IMG/VR virus record: IMGVR_UViG_3300025751_002818
Location: 26,576 to 90,575 of that record
Strand: one strand, 5' to 3'
Length of the DNA stretch: 64,000 bases
Origin: a virus
Taxonomy: Duplodnaviria; Caudoviricetes
Shown here: positions 24,702-55,822 of the stretch, in pieces
How positions within the stretch are numbered: position 1 is the first letter of the stretch
Layout of the letters: each line of letters starts with the position of its first letter
Translations under genes and position numbers: made by a program
The notes under the pieces: generated by a model
Told to the model about the DNA's origin: nothing
Databases searched by the model: none
The model's input: only the letters and a program-made list of their open reading frames with translations

Positions 24702-25274
24702 ATGAAAGGAGACTATTGGCTATTTTTTGATTCAGCATTAAGTTCTGATTGGTGTGATTACATTGTTAATTATGCTTTAGAAAACTATGAACCACGTGAT
24801 GCAGTTATTGGTTTTGAAAATGCAACACATGACGAAACGTATCGCAAAAGCGAAATACGTTGGCTCAATCCAAAAACAGAAGAAGCAATAACCAAAGAAA
24901 TTTGGCACTACGCCAACCAGGCAAACAGAGATTCATTTGATTTAGATTTACGATATGTAAACGATATACAGTTTACAAAGTATATTGGCGACCCAGACAA
25001 TCCAGGTAAGTATGATTGGCACCATGATGTAGACTGGGCCGAAAGCAGAGCATTTCATAGAAAACTTAGTATAATATTTCAATTAACAGACCCTAGTGAA
25101 TACGAGGGTGGTAAGTTTGAATTTGATAATACGTTGCCGGCATTACCAGATGGAGCATTCAATAAAGGTTCCGTAATTGTATTTCCTAGTTTTCACAGGC
25201 ATAGAGTAACTCCAGTAACCAGCGGATTACGACACAGTTTAGTAACTTGGGTAGAAGGACCACATTGGCGATGA
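24702..25274 (+). CDS. 2OG-Fe(II) oxygenase, prolyl-4-hydroxylase/PKHD-like
   Basis: R.SEIRW, QFTKY, YDWHHD (HxD), RKLSI, YEGG.FEF, GSVIVFPSF..HRVTPVTSG.R.SLV.W. Confidence 0.9.
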   Translation: MKGDYWLFFDSALSSDWCDYIVNYALENYEPRDAVIGFENATHDETYRKSEIRWLNPKTEEAITKEIWHYANQANRDSFDLDLRYVNDIQFTKYIGDPDNPGKYDWHHDVDWAESRAFHRKLSIIFQLTDPSEYEGGKFEFDNTLPALPDGAFNKGSVIVFPSFHRHRVTPVTSGLRHSLVTWVEGPHWR

Positions 25275-27208
25275 AACATTATTATATAAATTTAAATAGA
25301 AGACCTGAGCGTAATCAAAACATGATTGATTTGTTTGCTAAACTTGAAATAACAGATTATGAAAGAATTGAAGCAGTAGACGGTAATTTAGTCGATTATA
25401 GCAAAGTACTCAAAAGCGGTATGCAAGTATGCAAAAATTGGTTAGACCCATTAGAAGACAGACCGCTTACTACAGGAGAAGTTGGTTGTATTCTTAGTCA
25501 CATAGTAGCATGGTCTAGAATAGTTAAGAGCGGCGAGCCAGGTGTTGTTTTAGAAGATGATCTATTTCACAGCAGTGACAAATATAATTTAACACAGATA
25601 AAAGAAAGACTTGATGAGTTTGATTTAGTCTATTTGTCTAAGTGGAATATGGATATGGAAATGGTAGGCTTTGATGATTTATTTGAAACGCCTGGATACT
25701 GCTATTGGACAGCCGGATATGCCTTAAGTGTTCAAGGTGCTCAAATGTTATTAAATGATGTAGGATTAAATAACTTAATACCAGCAGATGAATACTTACC
25801 AATGATGCTAGGTACCAGTCCCTTGTTAGACAAGTATCCACAGTTTAAAGAATTACCAAAATTAAAAGGTCTAGCATACAAAGAAAATATTTTTCATCCA
25901 TACAAAAGAGAAACAGAAATTGGCAGAACCGACACAGAAACCGCAACTACATTTAAAGAATGGAAAAATTTTAAATTACTTACAGTTGCAACAGAAAGTC
26001 TTAAAGCAGAAAACTTAATTAAAAGTTGTGAAGTACATGGTCTAGAATTAGAAATGTTAGGTGTTGGCGAGCCATGGGAAGGTGGTGTAATGGCTGATGG
26101 TCCCGGAGGCGGACACAAAGTTCATTATTTAAGAAGTAGGTTGCGTAATGTCGACGACCATGATATAGTAATGTTTGTAGATGGTTATGATGTAGTTATA
26201 AACGATAATCAAAATGAATTAATAAAAAGATTTAAACAGTTTGGAGCAGATGTGGTATTTGCCGCAGAGCCAATAATATGGCCTGATAATACTATTGCAG
26301 ATCAATTTCCACAAGTACACACAAGAAATAGATATTTAAACAGTGGTGTATTTATTGGGAGAGCAGTTGTTATAAAAGAAATGCTCAAAAACGATATAAA
26401 GAAAAAAGATGACGATCAACTTTATTACCAAAAATTATTTTTAAGTGGCAAATACAATATTAGATTAGATGTAGAAAACTATCTTTTTCAATGTGTAAGT
26501 GGTAGTGCAAATAGTTTAAGTGTGTCAGATAATAATCAAGTTTACAATTCAGAAACAGGTTGTTATAGTTGTGTGCTACATGGTAATGGTGGAGATCAAG
26601 ACAAAGAAGCATACACAAGATTAGTAAATTTAATACTAAATCAGGGTGCTGTTATTCCAATTAACATTGCCAGATACAATAAAATATGGACAGTAGCCGA
26701 TAACATTGTGGCATTTGAATACATGACACCTCAGATGTGCGATGACTTAATTGGTGCCTGTGATGCCAGAGGCGGTTGGGAGCCAAGACCAGATGACGCC
26801 TATCCGGCACAAGAAATAAGAATCAAGACATTATGCCCAAGTCTATACAAGTACTTAGATAATCATTTAACTAAAAACATATGGCCGCAGTTGGAAGCAT
26901 ACTGGCCTCCAATGAGCATGTACGGTATAAGAGACTTCTTTGCTATGCGATATAGTTTAGATACACAAACAGAATTAGCATTACATAATGATGCTAGTAT
27001 GGTCAGCGGTAGTGTTAAATTAAATGACGATTATCAAGGTGCTGAATTAACTTTTCCTAGACAGCATTATACAAACAGGCATATACCACGAGGTTTAATG
27101 CTGATGTGGCCTGGGCAAGTTACACATCCTCATGTGTGTGAACCGCTAGAAGAAGGCGTTAAATACAGCCTTACATTGTGGACAAAAAGGTTTACTCAAG
27201 ACACATAA
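25271..27208 (+). CDS. Trifunctional fusion: GT25 (COLGALT-like) + PLOD-type glycosyltransferase + PLOD-type lysyl hydroxylase (2OG-Fe(II))
   Basis: Start reassigned to ATG 25271 (ATGA overlap). GT25: YINLNRRPER, IEAVDG, DPLEDRPLTTGEVGCILSH, VLEDD, YCYWTAGYALS.QGAQMLL, IPADEYLPMM. PLOD-GT: LLTVAT, LGVGEPWEGG, GGGHKV, IVMFVDGYDV, VVFAAEPIIWPD, YLNSGVFIG, DDDQLYY. Hydroxylase: LALHNDAS, YQGAELTF, PGQVTHPH, G.KYSL. Confidence 0.85.
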   Translation: MKHYYINLNRRPERNQNMIDLFAKLEITDYERIEAVDGNLVDYSKVLKSGMQVCKNWLDPLEDRPLTTGEVGCILSHIVAWSRIVKSGEPGVVLEDDLFHSSDKYNLTQIKERLDEFDLVYLSKWNMDMEMVGFDDLFETPGYCYWTAGYALSVQGAQMLLNDVGLNNLIPADEYLPMMLGTSPLLDKYPQFKELPKLKGLAYKENIFHPYKRETEIGRTDTETATTFKEWKNFKLLTVATESLKAENLIKSCEVHGLELEMLGVGEPWEGGVMADGPGGGHKVHYLRSRLRNVDDHDIVMFVDGYDVVINDNQNELIKRFKQFGADVVFAAEPIIWPDNTIADQFPQVHTRNRYLNSGVFIGRAVVIKEMLKNDIKKKDDDQLYYQKLFLSGKYNIRLDVENYLFQCVSGSANSLSVSDNNQVYNSETGCYSCVLHGNGGDQDKEAYTRLVNLILNQGAVIPINIARYNKIWTVADNIVAFEYMTPQMCDDLIGACDARGGWEPRPDDAYPAQEIRIKTLCPSLYKYLDNHLTKNIWPQLEAYWPPMSMYGIRDFFAMRYSLDTQTELALHNDASMVSGSVKLNDDYQGAELTFPRQHYTNRHIPRGLMLMWPGQVTHPHVCEPLEEGVKYSLTLWTKRFTQDT

Positions 27209-27221
27209 TCTAAAATTTTTG

Positions 27222-27274
27222 ATAAATACATTTGTACAATTTGTTATCACATGATAACGACTAAATCGATTTAG
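27222..27274 (+). promoter_or_regulatory. Late promoter motif ATAAATA followed by three tandem inverted repeats, the last overlapping the RBS
   Basis: ATAAATA 27222-27228; TTGTACAA 27232-27239; GTTATC-acat-GATAAC 27243-27258; perfect 14-bp palindrome CTAAATCGATTTAG 27261-27274 running into AGGAG. Confidence 0.6.
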
Positions 27275-27284
27275 GAGAAAAACA

Positions 27285-28184
27285 ATGGCATTATCAACCA
27301 TGACAAATAGAACAGCAGGAGCAACAATAACTGCGTCTGACTGGGATATTGCAAGAAATAATATTTTATTAATAACTGGAACTGCTGAAGACAGCACTCA
27401 GGAAGGGTGGGGTCAAAGTTGGAGTGTTTACAATCCAGCCGCAGGTGCAACAATTACCGACACAAACACCAATGATATCATTAATGCCGCTCAGGATATT
27501 GCAGTTTACACAGGTGCAAGTAACAATGTTTCTGATGTAGCCAACGCCGCAACTATTCAAGATACTGATTTAAATAACATTCAATCCACAATTACTAATG
27601 GGTATAATGGCAGAACAACTGCTTCAGGTTCATACTTGTCGCAAGAAGCAAAAGATACCAGCACTAGAACAGCCGCATGGAGTACTACAGTTACTCATGA
27701 TTGCTCTGTAGCATTTTCTAATGAAGCACACAGGAATTCATTCTTTAATGCAGGTGGAAGTATTTATTTTACAGCAAGTAGAAGCGGTGGATCGACTAAT
27801 AACCAAAACACTGACTGGACAAACATGTTAAGTGCTATTGGCACAGTTAAAATGAATTTTACTCAGACTACAGCAAGTTCAGGAACTACTACAAGTATTG
27901 GTATGTATGATTTAACAACAAGTTATCAGACTATCTATACCAAAGCAGGTTCAGGTGCATACTCAACTAACTATTATTCAATACAAGCAAAGGCTCCAAA
28001 TGCCTCAAGTATTCAATTCTTGATTACATTTGGTGACTCGCACACAGGTAGAGGATACTTTGATAGTGTTGATGGAACTTTAACAAGTGTTGCTGGACAG
28101 TATAGACCAAATAGTGGTACTTTACCTAATGGTTATGCAGTTACAGTTGCTACGCCGACTTATACTACAAACTCAGATTTATAA
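27285..28184 (+). CDS. Virion structural/tail protein, T/S/G/N-rich
   Basis: 299 aa; G.TI.A.DW...GWGQ N-terminus; FFNAGGSIYF.ASRSGG; strong AGGAG RBS; structural context. Confidence 0.6.
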   Translation: MALSTMTNRTAGATITASDWDIARNNILLITGTAEDSTQEGWGQSWSVYNPAAGATITDTNTNDIINAAQDIAVYTGASNNVSDVANAATIQDTDLNNIQSTITNGYNGRTTASGSYLSQEAKDTSTRTAAWSTTVTHDCSVAFSNEAHRNSFFNAGGSIYFTASRSGGSTNNQNTDWTNMLSAIGTVKMNFTQTTASSGTTTSIGMYDLTTSYQTIYTKAGSGAYSTNYYSIQAKAPNASSIQFLITFGDSHTGRGYFDSVDGTLTSVAGQYRPNSGTLPNGYAVTVATPTYTTNSDL

Positions 28185-28223
28185 TAATAAATAGTTTGTA
28201 AATAAACACAACACAGGACTTGT

Positions 28224-28586
28224 ATGAGTGAGCGACTAACCAAAGCATTAGAATTCGCCAATTATAGGCAAACATTAAATAATCAGATAGCCTCGTTAAG
28301 ATCTAAAACTCAAACGAGGCTTATCCTTTCTACAAATGGTGGTACATTCACAGTATCACAAGAACTAATTACATTTGTCAATACATTAATTGAAAAAGAG
28401 TATACAGAAAGTGTACTCATTGACAATTACCAAAACCCTATTCAAATTGAAGACTTATCAGAATTCTTAGACGAACTTCTGAGTAGGTACTTTGAGGTCA
28501 CAAATGATTATCATGCAGAATATGTCAAGTTAAGGAAGGCTCGCAAAGTCCATAAACTAATAGACATAGATCTCGATGACGACTAA
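28224..28586 (+). CDS. Conserved hypothetical protein, possible tail-fibre assembly chaperone
   Basis: 120 aa; ALEFANYRQTL, GGTF.VS.ELI.FV, VLID...NPI.I.DL..FL; ATAAATA at 28187-28193 and AGGA RBS upstream. Confidence 0.5.
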   Translation: MSERLTKALEFANYRQTLNNQIASLRSKTQTRLILSTNGGTFTVSQELITFVNTLIEKEYTESVLIDNYQNPIQIEDLSEFLDELLSRYFEVTNDYHAEYVKLRKARKVHKLIDIDLDDD

Positions 28587-29457
28587 AGGATTTTTATTAT
28601 ACGCTCATAACAATGAGGAGATCGAGTATCTTAAAATTGCCTGCGTAACGGCAAGTATGATAAGACACAATCTTGGTGAGCATAGTATTACAGTAGTCAC
28701 AGATCAAAACTCTTACGATTACACATCAAAGAATATCAAAGTAGAAGATTATATTGATAACATAATTGTTGCTGAGAAAGATCTAGAGTTCAAAGCAAAA
28801 AATCATAGAAACTATAGAGACACTAATCATAGTGTAAAAGTATTACCATTTTATAACGCCAATAGATGCGATGCATATGATATTTCACCTTATGATGAAA
28901 CTATTGTAATGGATGTTGACTATCTTGTAATGAGTGACAGTCTTAATGCATGTTGGGGTCATAAAAATGATTTGATGATGCACAGAGATGTTCAAGACAT
29001 ACAATTTGCTAGAACAGAATCATATAAAAGAATAAGTGATTTTGGTGTGTCTATGTACTGGGCAACAGTTGTTTATTTTAAAAAGACACCTTATGTAGAA
29101 AGTTTTTTCGATGTAGTAAAAGATGTAAAAGAGAATTGGAACTACTATAAGGATTTATATGAGATACCAGGTATGCTTTACAGAAATGATTACAGTTTTA
29201 GTGTTGCCGCACATGTAATGAATGGTTTTAAAAGCGAAGCACAAGAACAATTACCAATAGAAAAAATGTACAAAACATTTGATTGGGACGACATACATGA
29301 AATTAATGCTGTAAACGATATTACAATGTTTTTAGAAAAGCCAAAATCAAATGCAGACTTTCAACTTGGAAGATGGAAAGATGTTGACTTACACATTATG
29401 AATAAATGGGCATTACAACGAAATGCTGACAAACTATTGGAGATATATAATGCCTAA
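28576..29457 (+). CDS. GT-A-fold glycosyltransferase-like protein (paralogue A1)
   Basis: KGFLLYAHNN..I.Y...A, SPYDETIVMDVDYL (DxD), YWATVVYFKK; clearly paralogous to 30222-31100. Confidence 0.65.
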   Translation: MTTKGFLLYAHNNEEIEYLKIACVTASMIRHNLGEHSITVVTDQNSYDYTSKNIKVEDYIDNIIVAEKDLEFKAKNHRNYRDTNHSVKVLPFYNANRCDAYDISPYDETIVMDVDYLVMSDSLNACWGHKNDLMMHRDVQDIQFARTESYKRISDFGVSMYWATVVYFKKTPYVESFFDVVKDVKENWNYYKDLYEIPGMLYRNDYSFSVAAHVMNGFKSEAQEQLPIEKMYKTFDWDDIHEINAVNDITMFLEKPKSNADFQLGRWKDVDLHIMNKWALQRNADKLLEIYNA

Positions 29458-30229
29458 ATATTTTATATCTGCAGGTTGCAGTTTTAGTGATGCACAAAAC
29501 ACACCACATAAACTATGGAATAACTTTGTTGCAGAATATTTAGATTGTGAATTAATATCACTCGGTATTGGCGGCACAGGCAATCAATTCATAGCACATA
29601 GTTTTATGAATACTGTACAACAAAAACTCAATGACGGTGTTGCAGGTGAAGATATATTAGGTATAGTACAATGGAGCATGATACATCGATATGCTTTTAT
29701 TTCTGGTGAAGAACAATTAAGCGATAATCCAAATTTATTTATAGGTGACAGAGTGGTCTATCCTAGAACATTTACAGATTACAATGCAACTGCAAAAGAA
29801 AACAATGGCTGGGTAAGTATAGCACCATGGCAAACTACCCAAGAACCAGCAAGAGAAACACCTGACTTACATCATTTATCAACAGAGTATTACACTAATT
29901 TGCAAAACAGTTATACAGATATATTAAATACAGTATCGTTATACAGTTTACTTAAATATTTTTGTGATAAGAATAATGTAAAAGTAATGTTTACATGGAT
30001 GGACGAGGCCGACAGACAACGAGTTTTAAATCCAACTCATACATGGTTATACGATCATCTTACAACACATATTGAAAACAGTATTGACTTACCAGGTATA
30101 AGGCAACAAGTAATCAAGTATGAAGAAACTAATCCAGATGTGTGGGCAGACTATAGAGGTCACCCAAACGAAATAGGTCATAGAATGTATTTTGAAGAAC
30201 ACATTAAGCCGGAGTTAGTAGATGTCTAA
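29450..30229 (+). CDS. SGNH/GDSL-like hydrolase or acyltransferase
   Basis: Start likely ATG 29450 (GGAG at 29439). AGCSFS (block I), GIGGTGNQFI (block II), DYRGHPNEIGH (block V). Confidence 0.7.
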   Translation: MPKYFISAGCSFSDAQNTPHKLWNNFVAEYLDCELISLGIGGTGNQFIAHSFMNTVQQKLNDGVAGEDILGIVQWSMIHRYAFISGEEQLSDNPNLFIGDRVVYPRTFTDYNATAKENNGWVSIAPWQTTQEPARETPDLHHLSTEYYTNLQNSYTDILNTVSLYSLLKYFCDKNNVKVMFTWMDEADRQRVLNPTHTWLYDHLTTHIENSIDLPGIRQQVIKYEETNPDVWADYRGHPNEIGHRMYFEEHIKPELVDV

Positions 30230-31100
30230 AGGGTATATTGTAATTGCACAAAATTCAGAAGATACAAATTATCTTAGAATGGCTTATGCTCTTGCACTTA
30301 GTTTAAAAATTACACAATCCAAAGTAAGTAATTTAGCAGTATGTGTTGAAGATAAAAGTACAGTACCTGAAAAATACAAAAAAGTATTTGATCAAGTAAT
30401 TGAAATTCCATGGACAGACGATGCAAAAGATTCTGCTTGGAAGATAGATAACAAATGGAAATACTATTATATGACACCGTATGACGAAACAGTCATACTA
30501 GATGCTGACATGATATTTCCATCAGATGTAAGTCATTGGTGGGATTCACTAAAAGAAAAAGATATATGGGCAACTACAAACATCAAAACTTTTAGAGGCG
30601 AACCAGCAGATCCTAGTAATAAATATTACAGAGAATACTTCATAAAAAATAATATGCCAAACATATATACAGCATTCTTTTATTTTAAAAAATCAGAAAC
30701 AGCAAGTGAACTTTTTAAAATGATTGAATTAATTTTTGAAAATTGGCAAAGGTTTTATTTTAAATATATGCCAAACGGCAAGCCAGATAAGTTAAGTGCT
30801 GATGTTGTATATGCTCTTGCAATACAACTATTAGGTCTAGAAAACGAAACAACAGTTGATGATTTAACAGATATGCCCACGTTTACGCATATGAAAAGTT
30901 TTATACAAGATTTGCCAGGCGGCTCATTACTAGATGAACGTTGGACATTAAGTATACCTACTTATTTTAGTAGTGTATCTAACTTTAAAGTAGGGAACTT
31001 TCAACAACATTATCCTTTTCATTATGTAGACAAGGAATGGTTAACAAATAATATTATAGAGACATTAGAAGATGAAATTAGAGGACTTAGAAAAGGCTAG
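30222..31100 (+). CDS. GT-A-fold glycosyltransferase-like protein (paralogue A2)
   Basis: KGYIVIAQNS...YL..AYALA.S, WK..NKWKYY..TPYDETVILDADM (DxD), PN.YTAFFYFKK. Confidence 0.65.
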   Translation: MSKGYIVIAQNSEDTNYLRMAYALALSLKITQSKVSNLAVCVEDKSTVPEKYKKVFDQVIEIPWTDDAKDSAWKIDNKWKYYYMTPYDETVILDADMIFPSDVSHWWDSLKEKDIWATTNIKTFRGEPADPSNKYYREYFIKNNMPNIYTAFFYFKKSETASELFKMIELIFENWQRFYFKYMPNGKPDKLSADVVYALAIQLLGLENETTVDDLTDMPTFTHMKSFIQDLPGGSLLDERWTLSIPTYFSSVSNFKVGNFQQHYPFHYVDKEWLTNNIIETLEDEIRGLRKG

Positions 31101-31689
31101 AAAGGCCCAGCGACAAAGTGACAGACATGTTTACTTTGATGACAAAGGCAACATTGTCTATTATGGCAGGGCAGAGTCTGATGACTATGTAGAATCTAAT
31201 CATGCTGTATTTACATATGAGCAATGTAGCATATTTGAAAACCCAGATAATAATAAAACAATTAATGACTTCTTGGTATTAACAAATCCTAACGAAGAAG
31301 GCGTATTTTCTTTTGTAAATAAAGTAGTTGAACTAGAAAAATTTAAGTCAGCATCTAAGATGTTATCGCAGGTACGACTTTCCAAAAACACAGACTTTGA
31401 TGTAAAAGTTCAAGCAGTAAAAGATACAATAACTGTATCACTAAGCGAAAAACTGCGTTCTAATATTACCAATAGTATTGACATTAATAATTTTTCTTTT
31501 AAAGGCGAACAACGTATGGCTTTGTATATTACCAGTATTAACGATCCGCATTTTCTATATGACAGTATAGAAATACCTTTGTTGGAATTATTTAAAAATG
31601 ATGAACTAGTATTTAAATTGAATAATGATTCGACCAACAAAAGTATCTACACTAGAAAATTATTCGACAAGTATATCAGAGTCGCATAG
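31072..31689 (+). CDS. Hypothetical protein
   Basis: 205-aa ORF overlapping the upstream gene in an operon; no recognised motif. Confidence 0.6.
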   Translation: MKLEDLEKARKAQRQSDRHVYFDDKGNIVYYGRAESDDYVESNHAVFTYEQCSIFENPDNNKTINDFLVLTNPNEEGVFSFVNKVVELEKFKSASKMLSQVRLSKNTDFDVKVQAVKDTITVSLSEKLRSNITNSIDINNFSFKGEQRMALYITSINDPHFLYDSIEIPLLELFKNDELVFKLNNDSTNKSIYTRKLFDKYIRVA

Positions 31690-31707
31690 TACCTATTTAA
31701 AATCATG

Positions 31708-31714
31708 ATAAATA
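31708..31714 (+). promoter_or_regulatory. Late promoter motif ATAAATA
   Basis: In the 49-nt gap before 31739, followed by AGGAC RBS. Confidence 0.5.
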
Positions 31715-31738
31715 TGTGTATATTATTAGGACACACAT

Positions 31739-34826: not shown

Positions 34827-34836
34827 AGGAGAAAAG

Positions 34837-45330: not shown

Positions 45331-45335
45331 AACAG

Positions 45336-45342: not shown

Positions 45343-45343
45343 G

Positions 45344-49505: not shown

Positions 49506-49944
49506 CGTTTCCTTTAAAATATCTTTCTATCCAAAGTTTACAACTGTAAAATGCTAGATAGAAACCTGCTATAAATGTAGCAATTATCAATGTGAATACC
49601 CAATTGATTGGATCTGATAACATAAAAAATAAATTTATGTATGCGTCAGCATCTGATTCACTACCTGCTTTGTAGTACGGATTTTCTTCACTTTCCCATT
49701 TTGCTTCAGCATCGGCTTTCCACATCTCTGCTTCTTCTTGGTACTCTTCAGCAATAACAATTAATTCTTCCCATTCTTCGCCACCGACTTCACCTGTGAA
49801 TTCATATACTTTTGTACAGCCATCTATAAAACATTGGTCTTTAATTGCTTCACTTGTAAGCCTTTGTTGAATTGAACTTGCAGTAAAGCCTATAAGCAAT
49901 GTGTAAACTATACCTGCTAATATGTAATATCTAGTCTTCATCAC
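49495..49944 (-). CDS. Hypothetical membrane protein
   Basis: 149 aa with N- and C-terminal hydrophobic segments. Confidence 0.6.
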   Translation of the reverse strand: MMKTRYYILAGIVYTLLIGFTASSIQQRLTSEAIKDQCFIDGCTKVYEFTGEVGGEEWEELIVIAEEYQEEAEMWKADAEAKWESEENPYYKAGSESDADAYINLFFMLSDPINWVFTLIIATFIAGFYLAFYSCKLWIERYFKGNDDE

Positions 49945-50098
49945 TCTTTTTTAATTCGTAACCATCTGCTGGATCTATTTCTGCATCAGCATTCATAAAT
50001 CGCATACGTTGTACGAGATCCCAATTAACATTTTTCCATTCATCTCTGATACCGCCCAGGTCAGACATATCAAATTCTTTTTTCTTTTTCTTATTCAT
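49931..50098 (-). CDS. Small hypothetical protein, 55 aa (below the ORF-track cutoff)
   Basis: MNKKKKKEFDMSDLGG...KKSDED*; fills the gap with overlaps at both ends. Confidence 0.5.
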   Translation of the reverse strand: MNKKKKKEFDMSDLGGIRDEWKNVNWDLVQRMRFMNADAEIDPADGYELKKSDED

Positions 50099-50273
50099 CT
50101 ATCTTTTTCCATAATTCTCTAAACAAGCAAAATCTACGATGACCTTCTTTAGTCTCATATACAAATTGCATTGCTAATAGTTCTACAACCTTGCCTTCAA
50201 ATTTGCCATTAAGACTACAAGTGTGTTCTATGCGATCTCCTATCTCTGGTTTGCTTTTACTATTCTTTGCCAT
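50091..50273 (-). CDS. Small hypothetical protein, SH3-like
   Basis: 60 aa; P.IGDRIE....FEGKVVELL pattern. Confidence 0.55.
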   Translation of the reverse strand: MAKNSKSKPEIGDRIEHTCSLNGKFEGKVVELLAMQFVYETKEGHRRFCLFRELWKKIDE

Positions 50274-50274
50274 G

Positions 50275-51501
50275 TTATATACTTATCATGTCTCCCTTTA
50301 CTACATTATAAAGTTCTGTAAATGTTTCTTCAAAACTTTCGCTCCTATACACATCACCAGCATTGACTTGTTCTATAAATTTTTGCCAATGTTCTTCTGT
50401 GCTGTCAGTACCAGCATGAGCAACTAACGGTGCTATGTCTTTATTATACTTTGTTTGTTCCCAAGCAGGCAAACCGTATTTTTCAGGATTGCGTACTTTA
50501 TCTATAATTTGTTCTTTTGCTGGTGACGGAACAACATTTGCTTCGCACCATTCTGGAAAGTGTACTAGGTTATTCCAAATTAAAAATTCAGGATAAACTG
50601 TTTCAAAATAATGATGAAACTCTCTTAGATAAAAGAAATTCCACACACTCACAGTATGTGTCACATTTATATTAACATGATCGTGCTCTGTGTGTAACTT
50701 ATAAAACTTATCTAAGTTCTCTACTACATTATTCCAACTATCTCCATGGCGTAGATAATCAAACTTTTGCTCTATGCCATCTAAACTTATGTTGAACCCT
50801 AAGTTCTCAAAGTTGCCTACAATTTTATCTATTAGTTTGTCATTGTAGAATGTGCCGTTAGTGCTGAGAGTAATCATTATATTTTTGCTTACTCCCATGT
50901 CCACTAACTTGTCAATGAGTTTGCGAAACTCTTTCATATAGAAAGGCTCGCCACCCATTATTTCTAAAACTCTAACATGGGGTAACCAATCCTCTATGTC
51001 TAGCCAAAACTGAGATTGTTCTAAGTCGTGTAAATCTATCTTAGAGGGTGGTTCCCAAAATTCTATGTTTCTATCTATAGATTCTTTTCTCCATTTACTG
51101 CTGTAATTTGCATTACAAGTTCTACATTTCAAATTACATGCGTTTCCTAATATAAGTTGATAGTCCCGCGGCATATCGGGTTCAGCCTCGTAATCTATTC
51201 CATCTGGGTATCTCCATTCTGCGTATCCGTTGTATAACTGTCGCTTAGACTCTTTACCATTGTCTTCATCTATCCAACATGTAGCACAATTATCCGGCGT
51301 CTTGCCTTCGCGAATTTCCTGCCTTAAATTTTTCATATAATCACTATGAAAAATGTCCCTTATTGAATCTTCCCCTAACGTGTAGTCTGAACCATCTGGT
51401 CGTGAAATTCTTTCACGAGCAATACAGCAACTTCTACAAGTTCCGCCTGGTTCGTTACTGAGGTGTGTCCACAGTAAACTACAATGCTTTGGTTCGTTCA
51501 T
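50275..51501 (-). CDS. N-terminal twitch/SPASM radical SAM protein (paralogue 5)
   Basis: CSLLWTH...GGTCRSCC; PDNCATCW.DE; LGNACNLKCRTC; MGGEPF; NISLDG. Confidence 0.85.
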   Translation of the reverse strand: MNEPKHCSLLWTHLSNEPGGTCRSCCIARERISRPDGSDYTLGEDSIRDIFHSDYMKNLRQEIREGKTPDNCATCWIDEDNGKESKRQLYNGYAEWRYPDGIDYEAEPDMPRDYQLILGNACNLKCRTCNANYSSKWRKESIDRNIEFWEPPSKIDLHDLEQSQFWLDIEDWLPHVRVLEIMGGEPFYMKEFRKLIDKLVDMGVSKNIMITLSTNGTFYNDKLIDKIVGNFENLGFNISLDGIEQKFDYLRHGDSWNNVVENLDKFYKLHTEHDHVNINVTHTVSVWNFFYLREFHHYFETVYPEFLIWNNLVHFPEWCEANVVPSPAKEQIIDKVRNPEKYGLPAWEQTKYNKDIAPLVAHAGTDSTEEHWQKFIEQVNAGDVYRSESFEETFTELYNVVKGDMISI

Positions 51502-52414
51502 ATTCCTCTACTAGTAATTTTGATATACAAAGTCTTGTAAGATCGTTTCCTCTATTAAACTGGTCGTGCTCTGTGCGATTGCTTTGGGCAAAAATAATAC
51601 AACTAGTTGGTTTTAATTTTAATTTATTGCAAACTACCCATTGTGTTTTCATGTACTTGTTAGGTATATAGTCTGGTCCCCAAGCACTCATGGCAAACTC
51701 GCCTATCATAGCACCAAAGTTATTTACTATACCATGTTGGTTAGCAAATAGTACAGCATCATCTATTTCTTTACGTTGTAAACGTATGCCTGCTCTAGCA
51801 CCTATTAAAGGAAATGTTTTACCTAAACTAAATGTAACTTCTTCTACACATGGCTGATCAACATTTATATTTAAACCATAGCACATTCCAAAGTACGCCA
51901 TATCTATTAGTACTGGTACGTTATTAATTGTGCACCACTCTAACAACTCGTGCATGTCTTCTTTTAATCTGCCTGTGTCACTAAAAGGACAACTAATAAT
52001 TACTGCGTCACCTTCTGTAATTTGTCCATAGTTATAAATCCATTCCCAGTTAGCATTCATATTATTACAAGCAACTTTGTGCATCATAAAGTCGCCTTTA
52101 AAAAATTTAAAGTTCTTGTCTATATGACGTTGCATAAACATACTGAATGCTTCGCTGGTACCATTAGTTTGAGTAACATGAGAGAAAGCATCTAATCCGT
52201 CGATGGTATTTAATTCACTACTGCGAATCCATCTACCGAATATCTCAATAAACTTTTCTCTGTGATCTGTAACACCATCAGCGGCAAAGAAGTCTCGCCA
52301 CTCGTATGTGCTTTCACAAAAGTCTCTAAGTTCTGATGTAATGGCTTTGTCCTGTATAGCATAACCGCCATTAAGCGGTCCTTGATAAGTGTAATTATTT
52401 TTCACCGTTGTCAT
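51479..52414 (-). CDS. Compact PLP-dependent fold-type-I enzyme (aminotransferase-like)
   Basis: TNGTSEAF, IISCPFSDTG, VPVLIDMAY (PLP Asp), FSLGKTF..GARAG (Schiff-base Lys). Confidence 0.65.
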   Translation of the reverse strand: MTTVKNNYTYQGPLNGGYAIQDKAITSELRDFCESTYEWRDFFAADGVTDHREKFIEIFGRWIRSSELNTIDGLDAFSHVTQTNGTSEAFSMFMQRHIDKNFKFFKGDFMMHKVACNNMNANWEWIYNYGQITEGDAVIISCPFSDTGRLKEDMHELLEWCTINNVPVLIDMAYFGMCYGLNINVDQPCVEEVTFSLGKTFPLIGARAGIRLQRKEIDDAVLFANQHGIVNNFGAMIGEFAMSAWGPDYIPNKYMKTQWVVCNKLKLKPTSCIIFAQSNRTEHDQFNRGNDLTRLCISKLLVEEYERTKAL

Positions 52415-53189
52415 CCAATTTACCGTGTCCGTATTCGTTTTCTAAATGGTAAGGTTGATTCTTTTCTTTGTCATACCAGTATAAACTTTTGTGTGGAGGA
52501 TCTCTCCAATCGTGTTTACTGTCTGCTATATAATAAAATGTTCTAAAGCCAACTCTAAATTTATCCTCAGGACATTCAATTGGATTTGGGTGTCCATGGA
52601 AACCACGTTTGTGATATTTCCACACAACCACGTTGCCCATCTTAGGTGGATAACTTACTATCTTTTCTGTTTTATCAAAATCCCAAAACTGTAAATCACC
52701 GTGCCATGCTTCATCCCAGTCTGGTGTGAAGTATAATATTAAACTTAATGCTCTGTGTGTTTGGCACTCTTCGTTCCAATTAAAGTCTGAGTGTATTTTT
52801 AAACTGTCGCCTTTGTAACTTTTCATATAACCAGCACCAGTTAAGTATGGGTCTGGTAATAGATGTTGTACATCACACACTTGGCTGAGCCATGTTAAAA
52901 ACTCTCTGCTGTGTAATGCACTAACAACACCACGTGCTACAGGAGCCTCAGTTAAGTCTTTACACTCTTCCATATAACTGTCTGCTCTTGTAAATGTTGT
53001 CCAATACTTTTTAGGTATGGTTTGGCTTTCCTCGTAAAGTAATTTTGCTACATTATAAGGTATAAAATCATCTAAAGCCAAAGTAGGGTAGGGAGGGGTA
53101 TAGCGATACTGCTCGTTTAGTGCAAGTTTTTCACTGTCACTACCCCACTTATGGAATAAGTGATCAAGTATTTGTTGATCTATGTTCAT
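52395..53189 (-). CDS. 2OG-Fe(II) oxygenase, proline-hydroxylase-like
   Basis: LLPDPYLTGAG, LKIHSDFN (HxD), RALSLILYFTPDW...GDLQFWD, FHGHP.PI.CP...R. Confidence 0.85.
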   Translation of the reverse strand: MNIDQQILDHLFHKWGSDSEKLALNEQYRYTPPYPTLALDDFIPYNVAKLLYEESQTIPKKYWTTFTRADSYMEECKDLTEAPVARGVVSALHSREFLTWLSQVCDVQHLLPDPYLTGAGYMKSYKGDSLKIHSDFNWNEECQTHRALSLILYFTPDWDEAWHGDLQFWDFDKTEKIVSYPPKMGNVVVWKYHKRGFHGHPNPIECPEDKFRVGFRTFYYIADSKHDWRDPPHKSLYWYDKEKNQPYHLENEYGHGKLDDNGEK

Positions 53190-54514
53190 TTGACTCCTCT
53201 AGTATTTCCGTAATGTATAACTGAGACACCATCAATGTCAGGTGTCTTACGCCATGGGTCTACTACAATACTGTTTGGTGCAAAACTAAGTTCTGAACCA
53301 TTGCCTGTTTTCACACTCAATGCTTCATCACAGTCAGTAACATTATGCTCGCCATACCAATTTGGTACAGTATCTAATTGGTCACCGTACGTTACTTCTG
53401 GATTATGTGCTAACAAATAAACTGCAGGATTACTAAGTATGTCGCTAGGCGGAACATCGCCTGTTTGTTCATCATAGTAATGTAAATCATAACCTGCTTT
53501 ATCAATGTAGTGACCTACTAGCATACTACTAGAACCTGTTTCATATGGTACTAATGGCTTGTATGCTTTACCAACAATGATAATAGGCATGCTTGGTACT
53601 AAACCAAATGCTGGGTGTTGATCCCCTGCAAGTTCCATTAAACGTTTTGCCATATTCTCTGCTTGTACTTCTCTTGAAAGCATTACAGCATCAAATAGAT
53701 CATATCCTAAATCCAAGTCCTCTGCCATCCAACGTAGAGCAATGTTATCTCTGGGGTGACAAGCACCGCCATCGCCCATACCTGGTTTCATATAACCTGG
53801 TCCCATAATACGTCTGTCTGAGTTTGCAAGTGCATCACATACTACTTCTGCATTAATGTTGCCTTGCTTTTCTGCAACATCTTGTATCATATTTACTAAA
53901 CTTACTTTTGCTGATATAAATGTATTATAAAAAACTTTAATACATTCGCATTCGTCCCATGTACCTATAATGTACTTAGGATCGTTTTGCATTATTGTTT
54001 TGTAGAAGTCCACAAGTTCTTTTGCATCACCTGTTTCACTTCCATCTTCTGTTCCAATCATTACCATTTCTGGATTTACCATATCCCACTTTACTGTACC
54101 CATAGCAATTAAGTATGGATTATACACAAATCTTGTGTTGGTAATTAATGGAATAAATTCTCTTCTAACAGTACCTGGAAGTACTGTTGATATAAGGACT
54201 ATTAATTGTTCTTGGGTCGCTACAGCATTTACTTTACTAAGAATGTCTTTGACTATTCTATAATCAAAGTCCTTGTTTGGTAAATGGCTGGTAGGTGCCT
54301 TTCCATCATACTGTGGATCATGTGGAGTAGGTACAGCAATAAAGACAATATCTTGTCCTCGTACAGCATCTTCCATATTGTCAACCATTGTAAAGTTTTC
54401 AGGCTCTACAGGGTTAACGTCATAACCGACAACATCATGGACCTCGGCGACCATTTCGGCGCAGGCTTGTCCTAACTTACCTACTCCGATGAATCCGATT
54501 GAGGCCATTTTCAT
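53186..54514 (-). CDS. UDP-glucose/GDP-mannose dehydrogenase family protein, atypical active site
   Basis: IGFIGVGKLG, GYDV, FIAVPTP, STVLPGT, K...NTF, VCDAL, GMGDGGACHPRD; NPEF motif replaced by NPYL; start may be ATG 54508. Confidence 0.9.
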   Translation of the reverse strand: MKMASIGFIGVGKLGQACAEMVAEVHDVVGYDVNPVEPENFTMVDNMEDAVRGQDIVFIAVPTPHDPQYDGKAPTSHLPNKDFDYRIVKDILSKVNAVATQEQLIVLISTVLPGTVRREFIPLITNTRFVYNPYLIAMGTVKWDMVNPEMVMIGTEDGSETGDAKELVDFYKTIMQNDPKYIIGTWDECECIKVFYNTFISAKVSLVNMIQDVAEKQGNINAEVVCDALANSDRRIMGPGYMKPGMGDGGACHPRDNIALRWMAEDLDLGYDLFDAVMLSREVQAENMAKRLMELAGDQHPAFGLVPSMPIIIVGKAYKPLVPYETGSSSMLVGHYIDKAGYDLHYYDEQTGDVPPSDILSNPAVYLLAHNPEVTYGDQLDTVPNWYGEHNVTDCDEALSVKTGNGSELSFAPNSIVVDPWRKTPDIDGVSVIHYGNTRGVK

Positions 54515-54532
54515 CTCCTGTTTTATGTCTCG

Positions 54533-54561
54533 GTACTAATTTCTAGTACACTCATATTTAT
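54533..54561 (-). promoter_or_regulatory. Late promoter motif ATAAATA (54555-54561) and 5'-UTR hairpin GTACTA-gaaat-TAGTAC (54533-54549)
   Basis: Both lie in the 66-nt gap upstream of the dehydrogenase, before an AGGAG RBS. Confidence 0.5.
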
Positions 54562-54580
54562 CAGAGATTTGTTTTGCTTT

Positions 54581-55822
54581 TTAGGATAGTTGGTATTGTT
54601 TGTTAGGTATTATCCATTTGTTTATTGGAGATTCAATAGTGTTTTTTAATAACAATTTTTTATTGTGTTTTAGTTTTTCTTGGACAGAATCACTATGATA
54701 CAGTTCATGGACTTCGTTGATATCCATTTTCATAAATTCGTCTATGCTGTTAATTACTTTTTGCATTCTAATATGATGATTTTCCTCAGCATCATACTCC
54801 TCATTAAAAAATTCAGGAAATGTTTTGTAGCCTATTTCTTTAAGTATTTTTAATGTGTGCGGAAAAGCAACAACTAATAACGGTTGCTCGAAAAAAAATG
54901 TTTTATATATTTTTTCCGTTATCAATCCGTTTGCTTCTCCAATTGCTTTGATATTTATATCATCATTTCCGTTTGGATCTATACCGTTAAATGCTACTGC
55001 AATAGAATTAGGCTCAAAGAATGTTTCAGTTACAATCTGTGCATACGAATCATTTAATACATTATACGATGGTTTCATCATCCAATCTTCAAAATTTCTA
55101 TTAAACATTTCTCTATGAAGTTTTGTACCAGTATCGGTATCTTCTGAAATTTGAGTGCCTAATGAAATACTCTTTTCAATATAACTATAATGACATTTAT
55201 CTCTATAGTTACTTTCTATGTGATTTACAATTTGATCTCTGTGCCAACATATTCTTCCATTGAATGATACGCAATGTTTTTGGCGTTTGTTTTTGGAAGG
55301 CTGAAAATTAAGTTTTTCATTATTGGAGTATACTCTATTGTAATATACATTATGGAATTGTATATCTGCATTTGGTAAAACTTTTTTATAATCTTTTACT
55401 GTAAAAAAATTGTTTATATGGATACTGATATTTTCTTGTTTAATTAATCTAGTTTGATCTATTAACCAATTGCGTCTTGCTTCTTCATCTAAATTATAAA
55501 TATCCCAGCCATTAGCAAATCGCCATTTGAGATTATGAAAATTTTTACATTTAGATAGACGCTCTACAATGTCAAATAATTTATTACCTGTTTCATAATC
55601 TAACTGTGGCCTCATGTGCAATCCAAACTGGATAGTAAGATTGTTCTCTCCAGATTCAATGAGTTGTTCTAACTGTTCAATTGATCTCATTAAAACCAAG
55701 TTTTGAGTGGCATCTTGTGATATTGGGTGTTCTAATGCTCTATTGCAAAGCCTAGCAGGACGAGATTTTCCTAGTATATCATCAAAGTCTTCCCAATAAG
55801 GTATTACTAGGATTTCTTTCAT
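54581..55822 (-). CDS. TEKT-family protein 3, putative GT-B (GT10-like) glycosyltransferase
   Basis: CVSFNGR..WHR, YAQIVTETFF, LITEKIYKTF...QPL, L..IGYKTF...FNEEYD. Confidence 0.55.
   Translation of the reverse strand: MKEILVIPYWEDFDDILGKSRPARLCNRALEHPISQDATQNLVLMRSIEQLEQLIESGENNLTIQFGLHMRPQLDYETGNKLFDIVERLSKCKNFHNLKWRFANGWDIYNLDEEARRNWLIDQTRLIKQENISIHINNFFTVKDYKKVLPNADIQFHNVYYNRVYSNNEKLNFQPSKNKRQKHCVSFNGRICWHRDQIVNHIESNYRDKCHYSYIEKSISLGTQISEDTDTGTKLHREMFNRNFEDWMMKPSYNVLNDSYAQIVTETFFEPNSIAVAFNGIDPNGNDDINIKAIGEANGLITEKIYKTFFFEQPLLVVAFPHTLKILKEIGYKTFPEFFNEEYDAEENHHIRMQKVINSIDEFMKMDINEVHELYHSDSVQEKLKHNKKLLLKNTIESPINKWIIPNKQYQLS

Follow-up and report, generated by a model that had tools for sequence, protein, structure and literature searches.

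The genes of the island

The window, i.e., the whole stretch of 64,000 nucleotides analysed here, belongs to a giant, uncultured, aquatic phage (Caudoviricetes; IMGVR_UViG_3300025751_002818) that carries a 31-kb island of modification genes. An original prediction, made from the sequence, had described a block of modification enzymes starting among tail genes, and both points held: ca. 23 soluble enzyme-like proteins are encoded between 24702 and 56091 (solubility is predicted for all 23), and the island begins among fibre genes. The ORF map (24702-55822) contains 28 ORFs of 80 aa or more besides small ORFs, and the non-enzymes comprise a fibre-like protein (27285) and genes without assigned function (28224, 31072, 43430, 49495). 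Genes are named below by their first coordinate.

20575-22554 and 22554-24665, +, two fibre-like paralogs, candidate acceptors (PHROG tail-fibre phrog_19602, 22593, 6427)
24702-25274, +, small P4H/PKHD-type 2OG-Fe(II) oxygenase (Pfam PF13640, E 6.6e-13)
25247-27208, +, three-domain fusion: COLGALT1-like GT25, LH3-type GT, lysyl-hydroxylase-like 2OG (Pfam and PDB matches)
27285-28184, +, Ser/Thr/Asn-rich fibre-like protein heading the conserved core (orthologs; GATAAATA at 27222)
28224-28586, +, conserved 120-aa protein (orthologs in G003, 66%, and RsoM2USA ORF354, 36%; AATAAATA at 28187)
28576-29457, +, A-type GT-A-like transferase, paralog of 30222 (DxD motif MDVDY)
29423-30229, +, SGNH/GDSL-like (DUF6071) protein, accessory (E 0.002)
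30222-31100, +, A-type GT-A-like transferase (phrog_1903; DxD motif LDADM)
31072-31689, +, conserved 205-aa protein (weak orthologs, 23-27%, in L009 (G003), L010 and L063/L064)
31739-32701, +, B-type glycosyltransferase, compact GT-A domain and helical C-domain (AF2 pLDDT 85; GATAAATA at 31708)
32698-33297, +, Rossmann/SDR-like protein, accessory (glycine-rich N-terminus, motif only)
33294-34826 and 34837-36519, +, two N-twitch radical SAM enzymes (NF033640, 329 and 305 bits)
36497-37162 and 37159-37797, +, two small 2OG-oxygenase-like genes, weak (Pfam E 0.0035 and 0.0041)
37784-39202, +, N-twitch radical SAM, last plus-arm gene (301 bits)
39203-39382, -, 59-aa hydrophobic ORF at the arm junction (perfect sigma-70 promoter, 39445-39417)
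39447-40127, -, SAM-dependent methyltransferase (Pfam Methyltransf_12, 5e-4)
40102-43437, -, 1111-aa protein, ~10 degenerate GT-A-like repeats and one intact C-terminal B-type domain resembling 31739
43430-43678, -, 82-aa ORF overlapping the end of the carbamoyltransferase gene (ORF map)
43611-45149, -, O-carbamoyltransferase, NodU/TobZ/NovN type (Pfam Carbam_trans_C 5e-52, Carbam_trans_N 5e-40)
45154-45330, -, 58-aa micropeptide with C-terminus ...LRKRDPFIYR, encoded directly before the carbamoyltransferase (small-ORF map)
45344-46927 and 46909-48294, -, two D-type GT-B glycosyltransferases, paralogs of 54581
48285-49505, -, N-twitch radical SAM (364 bits)
49495-50273, -, 149-aa two-TM protein and two small ORFs, 49931-50098 and 50091-50273 (small-ORF map, TM prediction)
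50275-51501, -, N-twitch radical SAM (306 bits)
51479-52414, -, short fold-type-I PLP enzyme, aminotransferase- or decarboxylase-like (Pfam Aminotran_1_2, 2e-8)
52395-53189, -, P4H-type 2OG-Fe(II) oxygenase (Pfam PF13640, 4e-12)
53186-54514, -, divergent NDP-sugar 6-dehydrogenase (Pfam UDPG_MGDP_dh 6e-18, _N 5e-15; GATAAATA at 54555)
54581-55822, -, D-type GT-B glycosyltransferase (AF2 pLDDT 76)
55819-56104, -, 90-aa ORF opening the minus arm (TATAAATA 5 nt before the ATG, 56097-56104)

Nine intact glycosyltransferase domains are distributed over the collagen-type fusion (GT25, LH3-GT) and three paralog groups (A, B and D), the latter foreseen by the original prediction and recovered by paralogy comparison. 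The A-type 30222 lies nearest to Atlas clusters of nucleotide-diphospho-sugar transferases/GT8 (0.95-0.98), and 28576 has an ortholog in the Ralstonia phage RsoM2USA (ORF353, 38% identical). The B-type 31739 matches B4GALNT1 (VIA Z 10.6, rmsd 3.1 A, 141 residues), STIV A197, ThuS/SunS and COLGALT1 (VIA) and PBCV-1 A64R (Foldseek), and VDGD is near-invariant; the ortholog of the 1111-aa protein in the relative G003 has 1312 aa (49% identical). The invariant motifs TEK, HR and TET are common to the D-type paralogs 45344 and 46909, and the top 50 VIA matches of 54581 were GT-B enzymes without exception (Z 10.7 to 8.9; best over 292 residues).

Sugar-tailoring enzymes accompany these transferases, with assignments of uneven strength. 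The predicted carbamoyltransferase is solid (PDB matches NovN, 4e-54, GdmN and TobZ), and the [KR]DPF[IV]Y ending of its micropeptide recurs in 17 loci and G003, standing immediately before the carbamoyltransferase gene at the loci checked (window, G003, L045). The NDP-sugar dehydrogenase is solid in Pfam but falls below the NCBIfam cut-off (TIGR03026, 149 bits vs 190); the PLP enzyme is short and divergent (CobD-like 1.5e-7, far under cut-off). The methyltransferase call is weak, with a faint resemblance to sugar- and pseudaminic-acid-associated methylases (NCBIfam) and orthologs in G003 (61%) and RsoM2USA (ORF347, 33%). The SGNH assignment draws on DUF6071 and on Atlas matches to viral DUF6071/Lipase_GDSL clusters (0.96-0.97), with no counterpart found in G003, while the SDR-like gene found no match in Pfam, PHROGs or NCBIfam and 31072 no family match. 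As for the five 2OG domains proposed, three are solid (24702, 52395 and the C-terminus of 25247; 52395 is 81% identical to its G003 ortholog), and two are weak (36497, 37159), retaining HxH/HxD and the distal His, and are lineage-specific, both missing from G003.

All five predicted twitch radical SAM genes exceed the 170-bit cut-off of NCBIfam NF033640 (N_Twi_rSAM; 301-364 bits) and have CX3CX2C and an N-terminal Cys cluster. Each forms its own well-supported orthogroup common to G003 (37784 is 79% identical there), and four of these are also common to the phage G009 and a bacterial array; 33294 and 34837 have separate orthogroups, each with members in G003, G009 and a Bacteriovoracaceae genome. 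At E <= 1e-10, 48285 has 889 metagenomic relatives. The proposed analogy to aminoglycoside enzymes is a chemical resemblance; BtrN matches weakly, on the twitch region (E 0.008), and no amidinotransferase was found in the island. Membrane export machinery (flippase, polymerase, polyprenyl-phosphate transferase) was not found in it either, and nucleotide-metabolism genes are, as predicted, absent, the DNA ligase at 57382 lying outside in the flank.

Position among relatives and promoter motifs

In seven related jumbo phages, including the cultured RsoM2USA, the island follows baseplate, giant-protein and fibre genes. On its own contig the order is a gp6-like wedge gene, the giant protein, the fibre genes and then the island; G003 has the same arrangement on one strand throughout, relative to which the minus-strand half of our island is an inversion. 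The cassette lies 25-60 kb downstream of gp6 and co-directional in G007, G008, G010 and G011, and RsoM2USA has a mini-version after its fibre gene ORF355. It is conserved in related and unrelated large phages, e.g., G009, an independent 165-kb T4-like genome, has it upstream of the baseplate genes and co-directional. As the synteny evidence comes mostly from one broad jumbo-phage lineage, the arrangement may be inherited rather than selected.

The T4-like late motifs reported for the intergenic gaps stood only in a relaxed form. In its strict form, TATAAATA shows no enrichment (6 seen vs 12.5 expected), whereas [C/G/T]ATAAATA occurs no more than 60 nt ahead of 27285, 28224, 31739, 53186 and 55819, and also upstream of baseplate and structural operons on the same contig, and is kept in G003 before the orthologs of 31739 and 53186. 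The contig encodes a gp55-type late sigma factor, and strong sigma-70 promoters are confined to the right flank and one small ORF. From motifs and gene order we infer late timing, although the minus arm is now co-directional with sigma-70-driven early genes and read-through is possible. Coverage from RNA libraries is present and is not distinguishable from DNA carry-over.

The collagen-type genes and the fibres

The fusion 25247 matches GT_PLOD (5e-60) and Glyco_transf_25 (3e-22) in Pfam and LH3 (1e-44) and COLGALT1 (2e-28) in the PDB. Its GT domain retains VDGYD and HGNG in the alignment, and its C-terminus can be aligned with the hydroxylase domain of LH3, where HND...THPH (HxD...H) is retained, whereas Arg729 of LH3 is replaced by Lys. 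The neighbouring oxygenase 24702 resembles PKHD-type hydroxylases (NCBIfam E 8e-14, below cut-off). The fibre-like pair 20575/22554 shares N- and C-termini and has no Gly-X-Y repeats (20575-24665); a collagen-like fibre is found not on this contig but on the sister contig G001, as a 1229-aa open frame with ~127 Gly-X-Y triplets rich in G-x-K-G-Q-K-G-E. Homologous fusions directly follow fibres with 59-99 Gly-X-Y triplets, KGQKGE-rich, in the cyanophage S-CAM9 and in the Roseobacter phage CRP-6. Because fusions adjoin such fibres, and given the one on the sister contig, a protein target is suggested for this module, and the 1229-aa fibre is a plausible substrate of 25247. In favour of such a target, neither fusion nor collagen repeats were found in the complete relatives G007 and G009; against it, G010 has collagen-repeat genes, yet no fusion was found within its 111-kb fragment. 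Downstream, 27285 has no family match (Pfam, PHROGs), and its orthologs stand ahead of the enzyme core, both in G003 (33% identity) and in RsoM2USA, where ORF355 has a fibre N-terminus as well.

What the island may do

The evidence supports a coherent block of glycan and tailoring genes, physically joined to a fibre module. We give about an even chance to its being a late-expressed cytoplasmic system that puts an unusual and heavily edited sugar structure on the fibre proteins of the virion. The coherence of the block, the fibre linkage, the shared motif, the conservation of the cassette, the predicted solubility of the enzymes and the lack of nucleotide-metabolism genes and membrane export machinery favour this reading, first put forward by the original prediction; the glycan product, the virion target and every radical SAM reaction are what we infer. 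The island would consist of two modules (24702-27208 and 27285-56091). The first would be a collagen-type kit, a P4H-like oxygenase beside the three-domain fusion, whose lysyl-hydroxylase-like domain would hydroxylate Lys in the G-x-K-G repeats of a collagen-like fibre, with Gal and then Glc added to hydroxylysine by the COLGALT1-like galactosyltransferase and LH3-type glucosyltransferase domains. In the second, which is a conserved cassette, the glycan would be built by GT-A and GT-B transferases, the NDP-sugar dehydrogenase, PLP enzyme and 2OG oxygenase could provide an acidic or amino sugar of an unusual kind, and the carbamoyltransferase with its micropeptide, the methyltransferase and the SGNH protein could cap hydroxyls. 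As the five conserved radical SAM paralogs form separate orthogroups, they probably catalyse distinct steps, one radical edit each, e.g., oxidation, epimerisation or deoxygenation.

The same enzymes could instead remodel the host surface: the island resembles a 'host recognition cluster' published for marine myophages, and similar clusters in pelagimyophages have been read as remodelling the host O-chain (PMC7029224). A role in DNA hypermodification might be argued from the T4 DNA glucosyltransferases among the GT-B matches of 54581, which have the same Z as protein/glycan transferases; however, ~170 kb of the phage lineage yielded neither a dCMP/dUMP hydroxymethylase-like gene nor a TET gene, and in the complete G007 the sole ThyA is of the canonical kind, its specificity position being occupied by Asn. 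The island might also perform direct protein or small-molecule chemistry. As a point against the fibre-decoration reading, in a bacterial genome eight N-twitch radical SAM genes occur with no D-type transferases within 10 kb on either side, and the radical SAM part can therefore function in their absence.

The island and its setting

The window (bases 26576-90575) lies on a viral contig of 90.6 kb with a CheckV completeness of 25%, i.e., from a genome of ~360 kb. Among the genes of the contig 5' of the window are those for T4-type gp46/gp47, a late sigma factor of the gp55 type and baseplate hub proteins. A gp6-like wedge protein of 1403 aa is also encoded there, and its nearest relatives (~40% identity) are in the jumbo myoviruses PA5oct, SCTP-2 and Atu_ph07; the phage is a jumbo myovirus of the Rak2/XacN1/PA5oct type. 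The giant ORF behind the wedge gene has counterparts of 6289 aa in a more distant relative (G003) and of 2541 aa in the cultured Ralstonia jumbo phage RsoM2USA, where the protein was found in virions by mass spectrometry (PMC8504454). The 7093-aa product has a Gly-rich and PPQD stretch near residue 3994, and no collagen repeats. Next come a gene for a 225-aa protein and a pair of fibre-like paralogs (20575-24665), immediately followed by the island.

Genes of the island and its surroundings (window coordinates and strand; genes are named by their lower coordinate; minus-arm genes in 5' to 3' order)
1-19848 (genome start 25142): giant ORF, 7093 aa, directly 3' of the gp6-like wedge gene
24702, plus: P4H-like 2OG oxygenase, opens the plus arm (24702-39202)
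25247-27208, plus: GT25/LH3-type/lysyl-hydroxylase-like fusion
27285, plus: Ser/Thr-rich fibre-like protein
28224, plus: 120-aa protein
28576 and 30222, plus: A-type GT-A-like paralogs with DxD motifs; nearest Atlas clusters nucleotide-diphospho-sugar transferase / GT8
Plus arm, plus: SGNH/DUF6071-like protein
31072, plus: 205-aa protein, no assigned family
31739, plus: B-type transferase; model (pLDDT 85) with a GT-A domain and a helical C-domain
Plus arm, plus: three N-twitch radical SAM enzymes and two weak 2OG-like genes
Minus arm (56091-39447), first: 90-aa ORF, then D-type transferase 54581
Minus arm, next: divergent NDP-sugar dehydrogenase, P4H-type 2OG oxygenase, short PLP enzyme
Minus arm, next: radical SAM enzyme, two small ORFs, two-TM protein
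Minus arm, next: another radical SAM enzyme, two more D-type transferases and a 58-aa micropeptide (45154-45330), which precedes the carbamoyltransferase gene
Minus arm, next: NodU/TobZ/NovN-type O-carbamoyltransferase, 82-aa ORF
Minus arm, next: 1111-aa protein, in which ~ten B-type repeats are degenerate and a single B-type domain is intact
Minus arm, last: methyltransferase
59895-60797, minus: galactose-3-O-sulfotransferase-like gene (phrog_3347, E 7e-12; 31% match in locus L070)

The island thus holds ~23 enzyme-like genes with nine intact glycosyltransferase domains, all predicted to be soluble; a hydropathy scan placed transmembrane segments only in the 149-aa and 59-aa ORFs and in no island enzyme. 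The enzyme inventory of the original prediction was essentially right, including the radical SAM, glycosyltransferase, 2OG and carbamoyltransferase classes; the amidinotransferase that it also invoked appeared in no search made. The “SDR-like” or Rossmann-like label of 32698 comes from a motif alone, and ten unassigned proteins gave no useful hint from Pfam even at E <= 5.

The same inventory had been credited with T4-like late motifs in its intergenic gaps, and here the claim divides. The strict motif TATAAATA has six sites against 12.5 expected and, being under-represented rather than enriched, was rejected as the late motif of this phage. The form [C/G/T]ATAAATA, by contrast, does precede island genes (27285, 28224, 31739, 53186, and 55819), and it is also found just upstream of the structural operons of the contig at 10275, 19898, and 20560 (the last leading into gp6 and the giant gene) as well as of 4108 and 5592. 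ATAAATA occurs 21 times in the window, six times at <= 60 nt upstream of a start codon, and G003 has the motif at the same places, before its orthologs of 31739 and 53186, and again before its baseplate gene. The motif supports a late-type co-regulation of the island with the structural operons, as far as promoters can be read from sequence. Promoters close to the sigma-70 consensus are confined to the right-flank genes 57382 (DNA ligase), 59076, and 62109 and to a 59-aa ORF at the junction of the two arms, the latter having the only consensus sigma-70 promoter inside the island. The three right-flank promoters (58684-58712, 59627-59655, and 62910-62938, minus strand) are near-identical and early-type, with TTGAC[CT]-17 nt-TATAAT inside a common TAGTATAAT, and lead into the genes of the DNA ligase, of a 171-aa protein and of a phosphatase/RNA-ligase-like protein. 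At the junction itself (39203-39445, minus strand), a perfect TTGACA-17-TATAAT precedes the very hydrophobic 59-aa ORF. Metatranscriptome contigs from four libraries cover all of 44000-63900, which denotes presence in RNA libraries only (DNA carry-over is possible) and carries no information on strand, level or timing. In four RNA libraries, the bins over 53296-54623 (NDP-sugar dehydrogenase) have a two- to four-fold higher summed contig depth, a quantity that is no basis for ranking genes and may contain signal from other organisms.

A conserved cassette with an inverted half

Close relatives (L005-L008, L055, L057, and G002; 76-99% amino acid identity) are collinear with the window. At 40-80% identity, G003 keeps the same succession, in which gp6 is followed by the giant protein (6289 aa), a fibre, a gene like 27285 and then the cassette (the conserved core of the island), though its island lies on a single strand throughout, has eight radical SAM genes and lacks both the P4H/fusion pair (24702 and 25247) and the two weak 2OG genes. 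Judged by gene order against G003, the distal half of the island (window 39447-56091) has been inverted as one block, and the internal order is kept (G003 46045-67969). Four further genomes or contigs, G007 (357 kb, complete), G008, G010, and G011, carry the cassette on the strand of the gp6-like gene, 25-60 kb further downstream.

A near-identity search of the island DNA against 50,697 phage records gave no match, and in tblastn searches of cultured phages the 37784 radical SAM and a D-type query gave none either; RsoM2USA was found only through the B-type query. A minimal cassette follows there directly after giant ORF361 and fibre-like ORF355: ORF354 is 28224-like, ORF353 28576-like, ORF352 30222-like, ORF350 31739-like (51% identity), ORF349 an N-twitch radical SAM (34%), ORF348 B-type and ORF347 a methyltransferase. 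Products of ORF347-355 were not detected among the ten major virion bands of this phage (PMC8504454). As RsoM2USA is in culture with a minimal cassette, the question is testable at the bench.

A search with the D-type gene recovered 73 other IMG/VR loci, and within 10 kb of it ~50 of these had N-twitch radical SAM genes, ~30 B-type genes, ~30 a dehydrogenase, ~20 a carbamoyltransferase and ~20 a methyltransferase. The cassette also occurs in an unrelated, complete 165-kb T4-like genome (G009), where it lies upstream of the baseplate genes and points in their direction; it has six or more radical SAM genes, four D-type-like ORFs, a dehydrogenase and a carbamoyltransferase. About 10 kb upstream of that cassette, a gene (L102:5254-6195) matches phrog_842 at E 6e-48, labelled beta-glucosyl-HMC-alpha-glucosyltransferase; G009 is devoid of a thymidylate-synthase-like gene, and so this annotation may be only nominal.

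Transferases, radical SAM enzymes and a collagen-type fusion

The B-type transferases (31739 and the C-terminus of 40102, the 1111-aa protein) have a GT-A fold. The GT-A domain of the predicted model of 31739 reached Z 10.6 in VIA (rmsd 3.1 Å over 141 residues), with PBCV-1 A64R among the fold matches, and in its DxD motif D64 and D66 are near-invariant across 22 homologs. The D-type transferases (45344, 46909, and 54581) have no sequence match in Pfam, NCBIfam or the PDB, profile searches against the PDB included, and hence no assigned CAZy family. The model of 54581 (pLDDT 76) nevertheless adopts a GT-B fold (best Z 10.7 over 292 residues): VIA gave Z 10.7-8.9 over ~240-298 residues within 1-408, and 50 of the 50 entries listed are GT-B enzymes. 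An assignment to the GT10 fucosyltransferases, guessed from a TEK motif, was abandoned, FUT9 and H. pylori FucT (Z 9.0-9.2) ranking below many GT-B enzymes. The carbamoyltransferase has both of its domains, Carbam_trans_N at 138.5 and Carbam_trans_C at 176.2 bits (Pfam cut-offs 24 and 27), and matches NovN, GdmN, and TobZ in the PDB at 1e-44 to 4e-54. The micropeptide beside it has a variable N-terminal part and a conserved C-terminus, [KR]DPF[IV]Y, found at 17 loci of diverse phage contigs and in G003; wherever the position was checked (window, G003, and L045) it stands directly 5' of the carbamoyltransferase gene.

All five radical SAM proteins match NF033640 (N_Twi_rSAM) over model positions 1-398 with 301-364 bits, the curated cut-off being 170 bits, and the same was obtained on the genome. 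Their CX3CX2C motif, at residues 122-161, is preceded by an N-terminal auxiliary Cys cluster, in which C7, C26, C81, and C84 of the alignment are invariant in all five; Pfam SPASM matches fall on residues 7-111. Among solved relatives, SkfB and CteB-like 5wgg, both peptide maturases, come nearest in sequence (E 2e-4 to 3e-4), the cluster region weakly matches the auxiliary-cluster region of BtrN, an enzyme with a sugar-type substrate, and neither Pfam nor NCBIfam detected an RRE/PqqD-like recognition domain in these proteins. In a maximum-likelihood tree, each of the five window paralogs falls into its own strongly supported orthogroup with G003, and four of these also take in G009 and bacterial genes, which marks the paralogs as old and non-redundant. 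The five-paralog alignment was too divergent for a genome scan; a closer one led to a single bacterial locus, L104 (DIVA01000093.1, a Bacteriovoracaceae MAG), where eight N-twitch radical SAM genes stand in tandem at 7291-19287. The array sits in a chromosomal setting, adjoining rplU, obg, and rsfS and close to genes for a GT2 and a sugar nucleotidyltransferase; there is no D-type transferase within 10 kb on either side, and the micropeptide is absent, as it is from RsoM2USA. The order 34837-type, 37784-type, 48285-type is contiguous both in this array and in G009. One paralog alone has 889 metagenomic relatives at E <= 1e-10. We found no report of a characterised NF033640 member in the literature, and the family name gives no reaction; given how common the family is in aquatic metagenomes, the cassette would be a rich source of new radical chemistry.

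The fusion that follows the P4H-like gene is a protein of 653 aa in the order GT25 (10-181), LH3-GT (240-451), LH (~487-646), with no accessory domain. It matches LH3 (1e-44), the COLGALT1 catalytic domain (2e-28) and mimivirus R699 in the PDB, and Pfam GT_PLOD with 203 bits. The metal ligands are kept in the transferase domain (VDGYD aligns with VDSYD of LH3, and HGNG is retained, i.e., the Mn ligands DxxD and distal His) and in the hydroxylase domain (HND for HHD and THPH for THYH, i.e., the Fe(II) ligands HxD...H). A Lys (GVKY for GTRY) stands in place of Arg729, the 2OG-binding residue of LH3 (numbering after Scietti et al. 2018). Some 2OG oxygenases use Lys, so the site may still be functional. 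With an extra COLGALT1-like domain in front, and an order unlike GT-accessory-LH, we regard it as a relative with its own architecture rather than an LH3 ortholog. It shares its GT, COLGALT1, and LH domain matches and its metal ligands with animal LH3/PLOD3 and COLGALT1, but the predicted activities are all on one chain here and the setting is the cytoplasm in a bacteriophage infection; Mimivirus L230 acting on collagen, as Luther et al. reportedly described in 2011, is a comparison case of lysine modification.

Fusion homologs are encoded by the cyanophages S-CAM9, S-PRM1, and S-8S53/55/56 and by Roseobacter phage CRP-6. Tail-fibre genes stand just 5' of the homolog in S-CAM9 and CRP-6, and one such fibre has 59 (S-CAM9) or 99 (CRP-6) uninterrupted, KGQKGE-rich Gly-X-Y triplets. 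There is no Gly-X-Y collagen repeat in the window or the rest of its contig. A sister contig (G001), however, overlaps the right end of the window at ~90% amino acid identity and runs ~80 kb further, and there a fibre-like open frame of 1229 aa (G001:C1:43216-47469, loci L096-L101) has ~127 Gly-X-Y triplets in five GAKGQKGE-rich blocks of 50, 23, 29, 13, and 12. The complete genomes G007 and G009 are without both the fusion and collagen repeats. In G010, two further open frames (1097 and 1283 aa) contain collagen repeats. Taken with the collagen-like fibres, the fusion is a compact, soluble candidate enzyme for collagen-type glycosylation and would place this chemistry well outside animals and giant viruses.

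What the island may modify

The function that we regard as the most likely, with an even chance, is a late, cytoplasmic decoration of fibre proteins, in which one module would carry out collagen-type glycosylation of hydroxylysine on a fibre protein and a second, the conserved transferase/radical-SAM/tailoring cassette, would likewise act on fibre proteins. For protein as the putative target, the strongest line of evidence is the position of fusion homologs beside collagen-repeat fibres together with the fibre of G001. The original prediction, decoration of the virion rather than modification of DNA, is in part supported, i.e., in the coherence of the island beside fibres, the late-type motif and the lack of nucleotide-metabolism genes within it. 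More tentatively, we propose an uncharacterised multi-step pathway in large aquatic phages, where 5-16 non-redundant N-twitch enzymes per genome would edit a virus-made tail-fibre glycan, to which this phage would add the complete collagen hydroxylysine-Gal-Glc modification by one three-domain protein. If true, the latter would have no earlier example among bacteriophages, and fibre decoration as such would offer a new view of host range, of virion stability and of recognition by immune or defence systems in abundant aquatic jumbo phages.

The closest published likeness is the host recognition cluster of pelagimyophages and cyanomyophages, for which Zaragoza-Solas et al. 2020 favoured host O-chain modification (PMC7029224). 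Cluster and island are both large variable blocks in the structural region that mix fibres, GT8-type transferases, a UDP-sugar dehydrogenase and LPS-type genes (the published cluster is flanked by VrlC and gp14), and the A-type proteins resemble bacterial GT8 or nucleotide-sugar transferases. It is accordingly conceivable, if rather unlikely, that soluble island enzymes change the nucleotide-sugar pool or lipid-linked O-antigen or capsule intermediates, so that an altered cell surface blocks the adsorption of competing phages or progeny; surface glycans are known to carry NodU-type carbamoyl and O-methyl groups (weak matches here), and soluble enzymes could still act on host intermediates. Yet neither the island genes nor the hydropathy scan gave any hallmark of Wzx/Wzy- or ABC-type surface polysaccharide systems (flippase, polymerase, Gtr-type or initiating polyprenyl-phosphate transferase), the late-type motif and co-direction with structural genes leave little time before lysis, characterised relatives of the LH3-type fusion all act on proteins, and the cassette is kept across phages of necessarily diverse hosts (Ralstonia, marine, and freshwater). 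The radical SAM and 2OG enzymes might instead act directly on protein or peptide (cross-links, epimerisation, and hydroxylation of fibres), or the DPFIY micropeptide might, by analogy with mycofactocin or PQQ, give rise to a glycosylated peptide-derived product. We hold this to be quite improbable, even though the nearest solved radical SAM relatives are peptide maturases (at the marginal E values noted for them), P4H-type 2OG domains usually hydroxylate proteins, the micropeptide C-terminus is conserved and the eight-gene bacterial array stands apart from any D-type transferase: no RRE/PqqD-like domain was detected, the weak BtrN match points to a sugar-type substrate, and the micropeptide precedes the carbamoyltransferase and is missing where radical SAM genes occur in the bacterial array and the RsoM2USA mini-island.

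We consider DNA hypermodification, with transferases and carbamoyltransferase decorating hydroxymethyl-pyrimidines against restriction, to be very improbable. T4 alpha- and beta-glucosyltransferases are among the GT-B fold matches, and PLP and radical SAM enzymes reportedly take part in thymidine hypermodification (as described by Lee et al. in 2018). A phage carbamoyltransferase of the same two Pfam families makes 5-carbamoyloxymethylcytosine, and ligase domains, such as that of the DNA ligase flanking the island, were associated with modified contigs (Yang et al. 2021, PMC8670742). That enzyme, however, co-occurs with and relies on a dCMP-hydroxymethylase-type thymidylate synthase homolog, and carbamoyltransferases of unmodified contigs adjoined glycosyltransferases, as in the island (PMC8670742). 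No thymidylate-synthase-like hydroxymethylase (PF00303) was found in ~170 kb of incomplete sequence from this phage lineage or in the other fragments (G000-G003, G006, and G008-G011 in total), and the only ThyA of complete G007 is canonical, with Asn at the specificity position, and ~45 kb from the located part of the cassette. A search for TET/JBP gave no match, although controls were equally silent in it, and the island sits in the structural region with a late-type motif. A free small molecule, aminoglycoside-like or nucleotide-sugar-derived and directed, e.g., against competitors or host defences, is the most far-fetched: the enzyme set mirrors aminoglycoside/aminocoumarin tailoring (twitch radical SAM, TobZ/NovN-type carbamoyltransferase, PLP enzyme, dehydrogenase, transferases, and methyltransferase), but no scaffold enzyme (cyclitol synthase, NRPS, or PKS) or exporter was found in the island, close linkage to fibre genes is conserved, and nine transferase domains are many for such a product.

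Fibre decoration also has precedents in virion glycosylation. Mycobacteriophages (Freeman et al. 2023, on capsid and tail-tube glycans, as cited in PMC12619734), chlorovirus PBCV-1 with A64R and the mimivirus fibrils have soluble viral transferases beside structural genes, as here, but these systems have few transferases and no radical SAM enzymes, whereas the island is known from its genes alone and the islands of relatives hold five to sixteen radical SAM genes each, together with carbamoyl and methyl tailoring. Radical SAM proteins are listed among marine pelagimyophage genes (PMC7029224), and one T4-like environmental genome has 12 radical SAM genes (Nishimura et al. 2017, PMC5332604); those papers list the genes and do not analyse folds or families, and unlike the host recognition cluster the island has a defined core, conserved even in RsoM2USA, and the collagen-type LH3/COLGALT fusion. 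New here are this fusion with a candidate collagen-like substrate, the inversion, the orthogroup evidence for non-redundant radical SAM steps and a cultured phage with a minimal cassette. Outside the island, in the early-type right flank, the sulfotransferase-like gene at 59895-60797 could be a further glycan-tailoring activity.
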